From the NCBI RefSeq assembly GCF_044647545.1, contig NZ_CP172818.1: a DNA stretch of 64,000 bases; one strand, given 5' to 3'. Source of the stretch: Escherichia coli. GTDB lineage: Bacteria; Pseudomonadota; Gammaproteobacteria; Enterobacterales; Enterobacteriaceae. Of this stretch, positions 52,729 to 60,777 are shown one piece after another. Under the pieces are notes generated by a model. The model saw only the letters and a list, made by a program, of their open reading frames with translations. It made no database searches and had not been told where the DNA came from. A program made the position numbers and the translations under genes. Position 1 is the stretch's first letter. Every line of letters starts with the position of its first letter.

Positions 52729-53727
52729 ATGAAAGTGACATTTGAGCAGTTAAAAGCAGCCTTTAATCGGGTCTTAATTTCACGCGGCGTTGACAGCGAA
52801 ACGGCTGACGCCTGTGCAGAGATGTTCGCCCGCACCACCGAATCCGGCGTTTATTCTCACGGCGTTAATCGTTTCCCTCGTTTCATTCAACAACTGGAAA
52901 ACGGCGATATCATTCCTGATGCCCAACCCAAACGTATAACCAGCCTCGGCGCAATTGAACAGTGGGACGCTCAGCGTTCGATCGGTAACCTGACAGCGAA
53001 AAAGATGATGGATCGCGCCATTGAACTGGCTGCCGATCACGGTATTGGTCTGGTGGCACTACGTAATGCCAACCACTGGATGCGCGGCGGCAGCTACGGC
53101 TGGCAGGCGGCGGAAAAAGGCTATATTGGCATTTGCTGGACCAACTCCATCGCCGTAATGCCGCCGTGGGGCGCAAAAGAGTGTCGCATCGGCACCAACC
53201 CGCTGATCGTCGCCATTCCTTCTACCCCAATCACCATGGTCGATATGTCGATGTCGATGTTCTCTTACGGCATGTTAGAAGTTAACCGTCTGGCAGGCCG
53301 TCAGCTCCCGGTCGATGGTGGCTTTGATGATGAGGGCAATTTGACCAAAGAACCTGGCGTTATCGAGAAGAATCGCCGCATTTTGCCGATGGGCTACTGG
53401 AAAGGTTCTGGCATGTCGATTGTGCTGGATATGATCGCCACTCTCCTTTCCGACGGCGCATCGGTTGCCGAAGTCACCCAGGACAACAGCGACGAATACG
53501 GCGTTTCGCAAATCTTTATCGCCATCGAAGTGGATAAATTGATCGACGGCCCCACCCGCGATGCCAAGCTGCAACGCATCATGGATTACGTTACTACCGC
53601 TGAACGCGCTGACGAAAACCAGGCCATCCGCTTACCCGGCCACGAATTTACTACCCTGCTGGCCGAAAACCGCCGTAACGGCATCACTGTTGATGACAGC
53701 GTGTGGGCCAAAATCCAGGCGTTATGA
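52729..53727 (+). CDS. yiaK: 2,3-diketo-L-gulonate reductase (Ldh2/Mdh2-family NADH oxidoreductase)
   Basis: 332-aa [30 protein letters not shown]... Confidence 0.85.
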
Positions 53728-53738
53728 GGAGATAAGTC

Positions 53739-54206
53739 ATGATTTTTGGACATATCGCGCAGCCTGACCCGTGCCGTTTGCCTGCCGCCATTGAAAAGGC
53801 GCTCGATTTTCTGCGCGCCATCGACTTCAACGCCCTGGAGCCGGGTGTTGTCGAAATCGACGGCAAGAATATTTATGCGCAAATTATCGATTTAACCACA
53901 CGCGAAGCGGTGGAAAACCGTCCGGAAGTGCATCGTCGGTATATCGATATTCAGTTTCTGGCGTGGGGTGAAGAGAAAATCGGCATTGCTATTGATACGG
54001 GAAATAATAAAGTCAGCGAATCACTATTAGAGCAGCGCGATATTATTTTTTATCACGATAGTGAACATGAATCATTTATAGAAATGATACCGGGCAGCTA
54101 CGCTATTTTCTTCCCGCAGGATGTTCATCGACCAGGTTGTATTCTGCAAACAGCCTCTGAGATACGAAAAATTGTGGTTAAAGTCGCATTAACAGCGCTG
54201 AATTAA
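53739..54206 (+). CDS. yiaL: DUF386/YhcH-family protein YiaL
   Basis: 155-aa ORF in the expected operon position. Confidence 0.75.
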
Positions 54207-54323
54207 TCGAATAATCGTCTACGCCAGAACGCCTGGGTAATGTTATTGCTCTAACTATATTAATAATTTAGGTTGCTGCACATGCAACTTGAATTATGAC
54301 AGACATAGCCTCAAGGAATAGCT

Positions 54324-58576: not shown

Positions 58577-59235
58577 GCCGACCACTTCTGCAACTGGCCC
58601 TCGACCACTCATCACTTGAAGACGCACAGCGCGACGTGACGCTGTTAAAAGACAGCGTCGATATCGTCGAAGCGGGCACCATTCTCTGCTTAAACGAAGG
58701 GCTTGGCGCAGTGAAAGCCTTGCGCGAACAGTGCCCGAACAAAATCATCGTCGCTGACTGGAAGGTCGCCGACGCGGGTGAAACGCTCGCGCAACAGGCG
58801 TTTGGCGCAGGCGCTAACTGGATGACCATCATCTGCGCCGCACCGCTCGCGACGGTGGAAAAAGGCCACGCGATGGCGCAACGCTGCGGTGGTGAAATTC
58901 AGATCGAGTTGTTCGGTAACTGGACGCTGGACGACGCCCGCGACTGGCATCGTATTGGCGTGCGGCAGGCCATTTATCATCGCGGTCGCGACGCGCAGGC
59001 CAGCGGGCAACAGTGGGGGGAGGCCGATCTGGCACGCATGAAGGCGCTTTCCGATATCGGCCTTGAGCTTTCCATTACCGGCGGTATTACTCCTGCTGAT
59101 CTGCCACTGTTTAAAGATATCCGCGTAAAGGCGTTTATTGCCGGACGGGCGCTGGCAGGCGCGGCAAATCCGGTGCAGGTGGCTGGCGATTTCCATGCAC
59201 AAATTGATGCCATCTGGGGAGGTGCGCGTGCGTAA
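58573..59235 (+). CDS. sgbH: 3-keto-L-gulonate-6-phosphate decarboxylase
   Basis: 220-aa ORF; OMP-decarboxylase-like fold; 4-nt overlap with lyxK. Confidence 0.85.
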
Positions 59236-60088
59236 TCATCCGTTAGGGATTTATGAAAAAGCGCTGGCGAAAGATCTCTCCTGGCCGGAGCGGCTGGTGC
59301 TGGCAAAAAGCTGTGGCTTTGATTTTGTCGAAATGTCGGTGGATGAAACCGACGAACGGCTCTCACGTCTTGACTGGAGCGCCGCACAACGTGCTTCGCT
59401 GGTCACTGCGATGATCGAAACGGGTGTTGCCATTCCGTCAATGTGCCTGTCTGCCCATCGTCGTTTTCCCTTTGGCAGCCGGGACGAGGCAGTGCGCGAA
59501 CGGGCGCGGGAAATCATGAGTAAAGCGATTCGCCTGGCGCGCGATCTCGGCATTCGCACCATCCAGCTGGCAGGTTATGACGTCTATTACGAAGACCACG
59601 ACGAAGGCACCCAACAACGTTTTGCTGAAGGGCTGGCGTGGGCAGTCGAACAGGCGGCGGCATCACAAGTCATGCTGGCGGTGGAGATTATGGATACCGC
59701 GTTTATGAACTCCATCAGCAAATGGAAAAAATGGGACGAGATGCTCGCCTCGCCGTGGTTCACCGTCTACCCGGACGTCGGCAACCTCAGCGCCTGGGGC
59801 AATGATGTTCCCGCCGAACTGAAACTGGGCATTGACCGTATCGCCGCGATCCACCTGAAAGACACCCTGCCAGTCACCGGGCAAAGCCCCGGACAGTTCC
59901 GTGATGTGCCGTTTGGCGAAGGCTGCGTCGATTTCGTTGGCATCTTCAAAACGCTGCATGAACTGAACTATCGCGGATCATTTCTGATTGAGATGTGGAC
60001 CGAAAAAGCCAAAGAGCCGGTGCTGGAGATTATTCAGGCGCGGCGCTGGATTGAAGCGCGTATGCAGGAGGCCGGATTTATATGTTAG
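59228..60088 (+). CDS. sgbU: L-ribulose-5-phosphate 3-epimerase (L-xylulose-5-phosphate 3-epimerase)
   Basis: ORF 59138..60088 trimmed to an in-frame GTG at 59228 (286 aa, [16 protein letters not shown]...); overlaps the sgbH end by 8 nt. Confidence 0.75.
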
Positions 60089-60777
60089 AGCAACTAAAAG
60101 CCGACGTGCTGGCGGCGAATCTGGCGCTTCCCGTTCATCATCTGGTGACGTTCACCTGGGGCAATGTCAGCGCGGTAGACGAAACGCGGCAATGGATGGT
60201 AATCAAACCTTCCGGCGTCGAGTACAACGTGATGACCGCCGACGATATGGTAGTGGTTGAGATAGCCACCGGTAAGGTGGTGGAAGGCAGAAAAAAACCC
60301 TCGTCCGACACGCCAACGCATCTGGCGCTTTACCGTCGCTATGCCGAAATTGGCGGTATTGTGCATACCCACTCGCGCCACGCCACCATCTGGTCGCAGG
60401 CCGGGCTGGATCTCCCCGCCTGGGGCACCACGCACGCTGATTACTTCTATGGTGCCATCCCCTGCACGCGACAGATGACCGCAGAGGAGATCAACGGCGA
60501 GTATGAATACCAGACCGGCGAAGTGATCATTAAAACCTTCGAAGAACGTGGGTTGAACCCGGCACAAATCCCGGCTGTACTGGTGCATTCTCACGGCCCG
60601 TTCGCCTGGGGAAAAAACGCCGCCGATGCGGTGCATAACGCCGTGGTGCTGGAAGAGTGCGCCTATATGGGCCTGTTCTCGCGCCAGCTTGCACCGCAGC
60701 TCCCTGCGATGCAAAACGAACTGCTGGATAAGCACTACCTGCGTAAACATGGGGCCAATGCCTATTACGGGCAGTAA
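60082..60777 (+). CDS. sgbE: L-ribulose-5-phosphate 4-epimerase
   Basis: 231-aa ORF; class II aldolase/AraD-like. Confidence 0.85.

Follow-up and report, generated by a model that had tools for sequence, protein, structure and literature searches.

A K-12-type yiaKLMNO-lyxK-sgbHUE operon with a TRAP transporter in Escherichia coli: an intact and already known locus

What is the cluster of nine genes around a TRAP-type transporter in this Escherichia coli genome, and what does the transporter bring into the cell? The stretch of DNA that was analysed, hereafter the window, is 64,000 nucleotides long. We read the cluster as the canonical yiaKLMNO-lyxK-sgbHUE operon of E. coli, here in the nine-gene form typical of K-12 and accompanied by the divergent yiaJ/plaR gene, with a probability of about 0.93, and found no sequence evidence against this identification. 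The operon is intact and ordinary here, and it has been annotated and published before; because most of what had been proposed for the locus can be found in print, the finding is a known one. The genes are arranged as follows.

51680-52528, minus strand: yiaJ (plaR), divergent; 282 aa, intact ORF
52729-53727, plus strand: yiaK, 2,3-diketo-L-gulonate reductase (3-dehydro-L-gulonate 2-dehydrogenase, on the basis of NF009750); 332 aa, intact ORF
53739-54206, plus strand: yiaL; 155 aa, intact ORF
54207-54323, plus strand: AT-rich yiaL-yiaM spacer of 117 nt, a site occupied by a DUF4862 gene in B2 E. coli and other genera
54324-54797, plus strand: yiaM; 157 aa, intact ORF
54800-56077, plus strand: yiaN; 425 aa, intact ORF
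56090-57076, plus strand: yiaO; 328 aa, intact ORF
57080-58576, plus strand: lyxK, FGGY-family L-xylulose/3-keto-L-gulonate kinase (RefSeq annotation: L-xylulokinase); 498 aa, intact ORF
58573-59235, plus strand: sgbH; intact ORF
59228-60088, plus strand: sgbU; 286 aa, GTG start, intact ORF
60082-60777, plus strand: sgbE; 231 aa, intact ORF

No internal stop or frameshift interrupts any of the nine operon ORFs from yiaK to sgbE, which have Shine-Dalgarno-like sequences and operon-style spacing, and RefSeq lists the same gene set for E. coli genomes that match the locus. With nine intact genes in K-12 order and a divergent yiaJ, the locus belongs to the K-12-type yiaK-S pathway. A preliminary description of the window had placed the nine genes at exactly these coordinates, and all frames proved intact. 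Three of the four overlaps that it listed are real (lyxK/sgbH, 4 nt; sgbH/sgbU, 8 nt; sgbU/sgbE, 7 nt), but yiaM and yiaN are separated by a 2-nt gap (yiaM stop at 54797, yiaN start at 54800), with no earlier start codon found in the yiaN frame. Its wording that the genes are tightly spaced does not hold between yiaL and yiaM, which lie 117 nt apart, and its term complete is apt if K-12 is the yardstick but not if the ten-gene form of B2 E. coli and related genera is. The K-12 operon (b3574-b3583) agrees with it in its nine genes and their order, lengths, spacings and overlaps, shares the 117-nt yiaL-yiaM spacer and the downstream ysaC/ysaD scars, and shows allelic differences only. The locus has 97.1% nucleotide identity to K-12 and is colinear with the genes annotated there, the proteins being 96-100% identical; the window allele is 100% identical to that of ST648-type E. 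coli, not to that of K-12. An antisense ORF of 234 aa over sgbE (60094-60798, minus strand) was rejected as a gene because it has two stops in K-12.

The transporter genes encode all three parts of a tripartite system. YiaM matches the NCBIfam equivalog NF007374 for the TRAP small membrane subunit (329.6 bits, cut-off 260), YiaN matches NF011634 (914.6 bits, cut-off 800) and TIGR00786 dctM (519 versus 268) as the large, DctM-type subunit, and YiaO matches TIGR00787 (369 bits, cut-off 175) and Pfam DctP PF03480 (E 8e-108) as a periplasmic solute-binding protein of the DctP family. A DctP-type binding protein, a DctM-type large subunit and an adjoining DctQ-type small subunit together identify a TRAP transporter, and a match to an ABC ATPase model was seen for none of the nine operon products. 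YiaO shares 99.1% identity with its K-12 counterpart, and the YiaM amino acid sequence is 100% identical to that of K-12 and 72.6% identical to the B2 allele. In SiaPQM of Haemophilus influenzae, too, the small and large membrane subunits are separate proteins, like YiaM and YiaN. SiaP and YiaO are 31% identical (E 2e-51), and both arginines that clamp the carboxylate in SiaP are kept: R148 and R169 of YiaO align with R127 and R147 of SiaP, R147 being the residue that salt-bridges the ligand carboxylate. The SiaPQM ligand, sialic acid, differs from that of YiaO, and YiaO H209 aligns with the ligand-contacting N187 of SiaP. No solved structure of YiaO itself was found, the best PDB relative being 4p9k (E 9e-69).

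Curated NCBIfam thresholds for the expected function are passed by seven of the nine products, the others being YiaL, which matches a family model only, and LyxK, which passes none. YiaK (equivalog NF009750, 671 bits, cut-off 316; Pfam Ldh_2), SgbH (NF009831, 449 bits, cut-off 294), the L-xylulose-5-P/L-ribulose-5-P 3-epimerase SgbU (TIGR00542, 519 bits, cut-off 272) and the L-ribulose-5-phosphate 4-epimerase SgbE (NF009002, 508.7 bits versus 386; TIGR00760, 440.7 versus 389) all score above curated equivalog or subfamily cut-offs. LyxK has FGGY-family matches only, its 256 bits against the XylB model lying below the cut-off of 380. YiaL belongs to the YhcH/YjgK/YiaL family (TIGR00022, 218 bits, cut-off 45.5; DUF386, Pfam DUF386) and has 1jop (YhcH) and 9jrr as PDB relatives, but its 132 bits against the N-acetylneuraminate anomerase (YhcH/NanQ) equivalog fall short of the cut-off of 160. 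YhcH is a Zn-dependent anomerase (PMC8141875). Because YiaL scores below the NanQ/YhcH equivalog cut-off, its role is inferred by analogy only: like its paralog YhcH, it may be a metal-dependent anomerase, or may help to open the ring, so that the keto-acid is available in the right form. The profile matches and the RefSeq annotation support the gene identities and the 2,3-diketo-L-gulonate/L-xylulose catabolic route proposed in the preliminary description, and the matches of all three subunits bear out its TRAP transporter. SgbH, SgbU and SgbE are paralogs of UlaD, UlaE and UlaF of the E. coli ulaG/ulaABCDEF system and match the same NCBIfam models. Both routes end at D-xylulose-5-P, but the ula system takes up ascorbate by a PTS and employs a lactonase, whereas the yia system would take up the oxidised, ring-opened acid by TRAP and employ the YiaK reductase and LyxK kinase.

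How might these components work together? 2,3-Diketo-L-gulonate is the ring-opened product of dehydroascorbate, which is oxidised vitamin C. YiaO, a DctP-type protein with a conserved arginine carboxylate clamp, would capture 2,3-diketo-L-gulonate in the periplasm and pass it to YiaM/YiaN for import by ion-coupled, ATP-independent symport. YiaK, using NADH, would convert it to 3-keto-L-gulonate, LyxK, which would also accept L-xylulose, would phosphorylate this product, SgbH would decarboxylate the phosphorylated product to L-xylulose-5-P, and SgbU followed by SgbE would epimerise L-xylulose-5-P to D-xylulose-5-P, which would enter the pentose phosphate pathway. YiaJ/PlaR would bind a palindrome that covers the yiaK promoter and keep the operon repressed until released by L-ascorbate. 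In this scheme, the integrity of the genes, the protein families, the arginines, selection and the operator-like site come from the present analysis, the YiaO ligand, the role of the repressor and its effectors come from the literature, and the individual enzyme reactions come from database annotation and general background.

Is the imported substrate an acid or a neutral sugar? Thomas et al. in 2006 reportedly found that YiaO binds 2,3-diketo-L-gulonate at micromolar or tighter affinity and does not bind L-xylulose. A passage of PMC7660916 that cites Thomas et al. 2006 likewise gives 2,3-diketo-L-gulonate as the YiaO ligand. The two YiaO clamp arginines would fit an acid sugar rather than neutral L-xylulose. 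Alternatively, the real substrate could be a neutral rare pentose, with YiaMNO importing L-xylulose (or L-xylulose formed from L-lyxose), LyxK, SgbU and SgbE converting it to D-xylulose-5-P, and YiaK, YiaL and SgbH being accessory. The yiaK-S operon was first noticed through L-lyxose-utilising mutants, which counts towards a pentose, as does the annotation of LyxK as an L-xylulokinase. L-Xylulose was proposed as the YiaMNO substrate by Plantinga et al. 2004 and 2005, according to passages of PMC6958661 and PMC7660916. However, L-xylulose lacks the carboxylate for which YiaO has kept both clamp arginines, and the 2,3-diketo-L-gulonate reductase and 3-keto-L-gulonate-6-P decarboxylase, which would be useless for a pentose, are strongly conserved; a neutral pentose is, in our judgement, very improbable. 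In favour of 2,3-diketo-L-gulonate, the reported YiaO ligand, the clamp arginines and the published effectors leave the preliminary view that the substrate is still debated weaker than it was stated. PMC6958661 states that K-12 cannot live on ascorbate alone as a carbon source under aerobic conditions, which keeps the natural role of the operon from being fully settled.

Expression of the pathway would be governed from the region between yiaJ and yiaK, where three features can be placed.

52529-52728, no strand assigned: divergent yiaJ-yiaK control region, 200 nt
52557-52572, plus strand: CRP-like site TGTGCCGTAGTTCACG, two mismatches to TGTGA-N6-TCACA
52659-52679, plus strand: PlaR/YiaJ-box-like palindrome ATTTGAAATCAAGTTTCGCAT, one mismatch to the symmetrised PlaR box TGAAA-N5-TTTCA

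YiaJ has matches to IclR-family models, none of which reaches its equivalog cut-off (KdgR scores highest, 159 bits versus 275), is annotated as yiaJ/plaR in RefSeq, and has 99.6% amino acid identity to K-12 PlaR. IclR-family homology, divergent position and an operator-like palindrome together identify it as YiaJ/PlaR, and the divergent IclR-type repressor of the preliminary description is upheld by the family matches and the RefSeq annotation. With up to two mismatches allowed, 0.26 matches to the symmetrised PlaR box are expected in the whole window, and the palindrome at 52659-52679 is a putative operator; the PlaR consensus string as printed in PMC6958661 had no match in the control region at up to three mismatches. 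CRP-like sites are not above chance, with 30 in the window versus 25.7 expected. CRP dependence of the yiaK-S operon was reportedly described by Ibanez et al. in 2000. A consensus promoter scan found no site in 52529-52728, and promoter and terminator scans gave counts no higher than in shuffled sequence. In K-12, two YiaJ ChIP-exo peaks lie between yiaJ and yiaK, and strains without yiaJ express the operon free of repression and grow faster on ascorbate (PMC6237786); the growth test of a yiaJ deletion on L-ascorbate, suggested in the preliminary description, has thus already been published. L-Ascorbate and galacturonate are YiaJ/PlaR effectors that release PlaR from the yiaK promoter (PMC6958661), and in the wild type the operon is held under tight repression (PMC6237786, PMC6958661).

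Of 5426 complete E. coli genomes, 5425 have a match to the locus and 4813 cover at least 80% of it, and about 430 of the 5426 have no match to yiaK-yiaN. Across all ten genes dN/dS is 0.00-0.15 against both the K-12 and B2 alleles, which reach a dS of 2.4, and for yiaK it is 0.03; these ratios indicate that all genes are under strong purifying selection. In O157:H7-type genomes everything from within yiaJ to sgbE is deleted, and IS insertions occur at the locus in some strains. The proposal that the locus is a cryptic, decaying remnant without a physiological role in E. coli can draw on that deletion, the roughly 430 genomes without a yiaK-yiaN match, the IS insertions, the lack of DUF4862 in the K-12-type form and the tight repression, but it merits almost no credence given that all nine ORFs are intact here, dN/dS stays in the same low range even at dS up to 2.4 and is nowhere neutral, most genomes keep at least 80% of the locus, and de-repression yields an ascorbate growth phenotype (PMC6237786).

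The K-12-type operon is the shorter of two versions in E. coli. A ten-gene form, yiaK-yiaL-DUF4862-yiaMNO-lyxK-sgbHUE, is present in 1055 of the 5426 complete E. coli genomes (~19%, B2 strains); it is found in B2 E. coli ST131, CFT073 and UTI89, and in E. albertii, E. whittamii, Pseudocitrobacter and Affinibrenneria. Its flanks, repressor, enzymes and TRAP architecture are the same as in the window, and an extra DUF4862 gene after yiaL and, in B2 strains, divergent yiaM and yiaN set it apart. A DUF4862 gene also follows yiaL in sister Escherichia species, Klebsiella and Salmonella. The Klebsiella pneumoniae yiaKLX1X2PQRS operon (Campos et al. 2008, as cited in a passage of PMC6958661) lies in the same malS-avtA-ysaA-yiaJ chromosomal context and has yiaK, yiaL, lyxK, sgbH, sgbU and sgbE in common with the window, but DUF4862 (in the yiaX1 position) and an MFS permease (yiaX2) stand in place of the TRAP genes, whereas the window has TRAP and no DUF4862; one Salmonella lineage has the Klebsiella arrangement. 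The DUF4862 gene encodes 306 aa, and its product (YiaX1) is a predicted TIM barrel resembling xylose isomerase, and as such a predicted sugar isomerase or epimerase; the literature searched made no mention of DUF4862.

Is the 117-nt spacer what remains of that gene? No DUF4862 remnant is detectable in it, and the idea of a relic was rejected, the only similarities being chance 7-11-mers. An alignment of the spacer upstream of yiaM from nine loci shows conservation of the ribosome-binding site and start codon alone, the rest being unalignable between haplotypes, and therefore gives no grounds for a conserved RNA or operator. Hairpins predicted at 54210-54247 and 54263-54297 (MFE -30.6 kcal/mol, z = -3.1) are confined to three K-12-type sequences among the loci aligned. 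B2 yiaM and yiaN are 70% and 77% nucleotide-identical to those of the window (dS 2.4 and 1.6), and the divergent block between the haplotypes runs from ~54000 to ~56400. One locus labelled as a Citrobacter MAG (L009) was left out as an outgroup because its proteins are 100% identical to those of B2 E. coli. Next to the ten-gene form, the nine-gene form looks derived. It could have been functionally trimmed from a ten-gene ancestor, a ~2.4-kb block from the yiaL 3' end to the 5' part of yiaO having been swapped from an enterobacterial donor with loss of DUF4862 (YiaX1), but we regard this full history as doubtful. The transporter block of E. coli comes in two versions that are deeply divergent, and the one in laboratory K-12 is without the conserved DUF4862. 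If DUF4862 acts on 2,3-diketo-L-gulonate or 3-keto-L-gulonate, K-12-type and B2-type strains would differ in their use of oxidised vitamin C, and the "cryptic" behaviour of the K-12 operon would gain a genetic explanation. DUF4862 offers a testable lead on an orphan enzyme family and may help to explain the elusive role of the K-12 operon.

Downstream of sgbE, the K-12-like structure continues with two further features.

60786-60807, no strand assigned: GC-rich hairpin GCCGGGGC-TTCATT-GCCCCGGC, read from the sequence, directly 3' of sgbE
60809-61102, no strand assigned: ysaC/ysaD-type deletion scars, K-12 annotation mapped onto the window

The hairpin is possibly a terminator common to the sgbE side and a convergent AraC-family gene remnant; a T-run after it is absent on the plus strand. 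An Rfam scan of 51000-62500 (E <=1) gave one sub-threshold match, "CRISPR-DR16" (21.9 bits versus a gathering threshold of 35, E 0.32), which was dismissed as chance and arises because of this GC hairpin. A reference-guided assembly artefact is unlikely to have caused the sgbE-yiaT mosaic, because the window elsewhere follows the ST648 structure where K-12 differs. In the scar, a junction at 60912/60913 connects the 3' end of an AraC-family gene (minus strand) with a piece from the interior of a GH127 glycoside hydrolase gene (plus strand), and BLAST comparison with island-bearing strains shows that 4022 bp are absent at junction 1 and ~209 bp at junction 2.

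The yiaK-sgbE operon of the window is already known and annotated. The 10-kb locus query matches 5425 of 5426 complete E. coli genomes, the locus is colinear with annotated K-12 b3574-b3583 (97.1% identity), and window positions 50000-60912 are 100% identical to ST648-type strains. As the preliminary description had it, nine plus-strand genes, uninterrupted in both the ORF listing and direct translation, fill exactly 52729-60777, and their annotation agrees with NCBIfam, Pfam and K-12 colinearity. The genes, with NCBIfam scores and curated cut-offs for their products in brackets, are:

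51680-52528, minus strand, yiaJ, divergent from the operon
52729-53727, plus strand, yiaK (671 bits, cut-off 316)
53739-54206, plus strand, yiaL
54324-54797, plus strand, yiaM (330 bits, cut-off 260)
54800-56077, plus strand, yiaN (915 bits, cut-off 800)
56090-57076, plus strand, yiaO (DctP subfamily, 369 bits, cut-off 175)
57080-58576, plus strand, lyxK
58573-59235, plus strand, sgbH (449 bits, cut-off 294)
59228-60088, plus strand, sgbU, GTG start (519 bits, cut-off 272)
60082-60777, plus strand, sgbE (509 bits, cut-off 386)

YiaL belongs to the YhcH/YjgK/YiaL family (NCBIfam, 218 bits against a cut-off of 45.5) and scores 132 bits with the N-acetylneuraminate anomerase equivalog, under its cut-off of 160, while LyxK matches FGGY-kinase models only, every score under cut-off; Pfam assignments are consistent with those of NCBIfam. 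Three of the four claimed overlaps are present (lyxK/sgbH 4 nt, sgbH/sgbU 8 nt, sgbU/sgbE 7 nt), but yiaM and yiaN are separated by 2 nt, and no start codon was found further upstream in the yiaN frame. With 117 nt between yiaL and yiaM, spacing in the cluster is therefore not uniformly tight. Each gene has a dN/dS of 0.00-0.15 against both the K-12 and B2 alleles, so the genes are kept by selection and are not decaying. According to database annotation and general knowledge, YiaK would reduce 2,3-diketo-L-gulonate to 3-keto-L-gulonate, LyxK would phosphorylate the latter, SgbH would decarboxylate the LyxK product to L-xylulose-5-P, and SgbU and SgbE would epimerise this to D-xylulose-5-P. A 234-aa ORF wholly antisense to sgbE (60094-60798, minus strand) is uninterrupted in the window, in SCU-172 and in B2 but contains 2 stops in K-12; it is not conserved, and a chance open frame explains it best.

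What distinguishes the window's operon from its counterparts? The E. coli locus exists in three states. The nine-gene K-12-type form of the window is represented by about 3829 of 5426 genomes, which cover at least 80% of the yiaK-yiaN query. In the ten-gene form (1055/5426), found in B2 strains including ST131, CFT073, UTI89 and ATCC 25922, yiaL and yiaM have a DUF4862 gene (306 aa) between them. In O157:H7-type genomes everything from inside yiaJ through the end of sgbE is gone; at one such locus (L005, 2501-2643) a 141-nt yiaJ remnant is fused straight to an AraC-family gene. The yiaK-yiaN match is absent in about 430 complete genomes.

Nucleotide identity between window and B2 is 70% in yiaM and 77% in yiaN, with dS of 2.4 and 1.6, respectively, against 0.17-0.43 in the other genes; the genes on either side of these two are 91-99% identical between the nine- and ten-gene forms. 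The low-identity block, about 54000-56400, comprises the yiaL 3' end, yiaM, yiaN and the 5' part of yiaO, and is 59-83% identical to the B2 allele, whereas its flanks are 90-99% identical; on sequence comparison the block resembles a xenologous replacement within the species. The nearest relative found is Pseudocitrobacter (YiaM 81%, YiaN 90% identical). E. albertii and E. whittamii have B2-type yiaM and yiaN plus DUF4862, Pseudocitrobacter and Affinibrenneria have DUF4862 followed by TRAP genes, and Phytobacter lacks DUF4862. At the same chromosomal site, Klebsiella and one Salmonella lineage carry yiaK-yiaL-DUF4862-MFS-lyxK-sgbHUE, in agreement with the published yiaKLX1X2PQRS layout. Read most economically, the yiaL-lyxK segment would be an exchangeable transporter cassette, and we infer that DUF4862 is ancestral and that the K-12-type form is derived, through replacement from a putative enterobacterial donor.

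The DUF4862 gene is absent from the window. At comparison locus L004 it occupies 4047-4967, and it is conserved after yiaL in B2 E. coli, sister Escherichia species, Klebsiella and Salmonella (306-309 aa). No sequence relative was found in the PDB, and the searchable literature does not mention it. Its AlphaFold2 model (pTM 0.81, mean pLDDT 75), built on a shallow alignment of 15 sequences, has strands and helices alternating in a TIM-barrel pattern, and its Foldseek neighbours in the PDB are L-rhamnose isomerase, xylose isomerase and the 3-keto-glucoside epimerase YcjR (E 3e-8 to 3e-6, TM-scores 0.6-0.7, sequence identity 12-15%). The prediction for the protein is thus a TIM barrel of the xylose-isomerase kind. 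Pfam places the SgbU-type epimerases (AP_endonuc_2) in that broad class of folds too, and this predicted kinship makes a sugar isomerase or epimerase role plausible. The derived K-12-type operon together with the orphan DUF4862 gene is the sole partly new reading here and would be of moderate interest if true; that it is functionally meaningful is doubtful, with a probability of roughly 0.2.

Where ten-gene forms have DUF4862, the window has only the 117-nt spacer (54207-54323). No trace of DUF4862 was found in it, which dismisses the spacer as a remnant, and no conservation of the spacer across haplotypes or Rfam family in the scanned region was detected. Folding of the entire spacer gives z = -3.1, and a 14-bp hairpin with no T-run behind it is predicted at 54263-54297; by eye the pairing is mostly preserved despite differences, among three K-12-type sequences, too few to judge.

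At the sequence level, the three yiaMNO genes qualify as a TRAP transporter, as described previously, and one of DctPQM type; the accompanying view that its substrate is still debated is mostly out of date, the YiaO ligand having been reported. YiaO aligns at 31% identity with SiaP, the sialic-acid binding protein of Haemophilus influenzae. The carboxylate-clamp residues R127 and R147 of SiaP align with YiaO R148 and R169, which supports a putative acid-sugar ligand. YiaO H209 (window about 56714-56716) lies at the position of SiaP N187, giving QEHP instead of the QENP seen in SiaP and in the three TRAP binding proteins of known structure that are closest to YiaO. The Asn of this motif touches the ligand in SiaP, and YiaO residue 209 may be a specificity determinant. 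The PDB contains no YiaO structure; the nearest match there is 4p9k (E 9e-69).

YiaJ binds in the yiaJ-yiaK interval, and deleting it relieves repression of the operon and makes growth on ascorbate faster, microaerobic conditions included (PMC6237786); the ascorbate growth test suggested for a yiaJ deletion is thus already published. L-Ascorbate and galacturonate free PlaR (YiaJ) from the yiaK promoter (PMC6958661). A PlaR-box-like palindrome, ATTTGAAATCAAGTTTCGCAT, lies at 52659-52679 in the window, where promoter and terminator consensus scans gave counts at background level.

Downstream of the operon, the window is a mosaic: 1-61102 is ST648-type (99.9-100% identity) and 61097-64000 nearly K-12 (1 SNP), the switch falling at about 61097-61102 within the sgbE-yiaT intergenic region (60778-61123). 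Both K-12 ysaC/ysaD-scar deletion junctions are present at identical nucleotides, with about 4.2 kb missing (AraC regulator, MFS transporter, GH127 glycosidase), yet the scars themselves match ST648-type sequence at 100% and differ from those of K-12 by about 10%. This combination occurs in 0/5426 complete genomes (best 95.8%), and junction 1 has no microhomology. Recombination with mismatch correction that spared a large loop, or an assembly artefact, are candidate explanations. In the window's closest relatives, ST648-type strains (L006, 17673-19837), yiaT-yiaW is missing, and hicAB and a type I restriction endonuclease gene lie between the GH127 gene and aldB. An IS150 copy adjoining hokA (30817-32263) has the K-12 orientation and is inverted relative to an otherwise near-identical ST648 genome.
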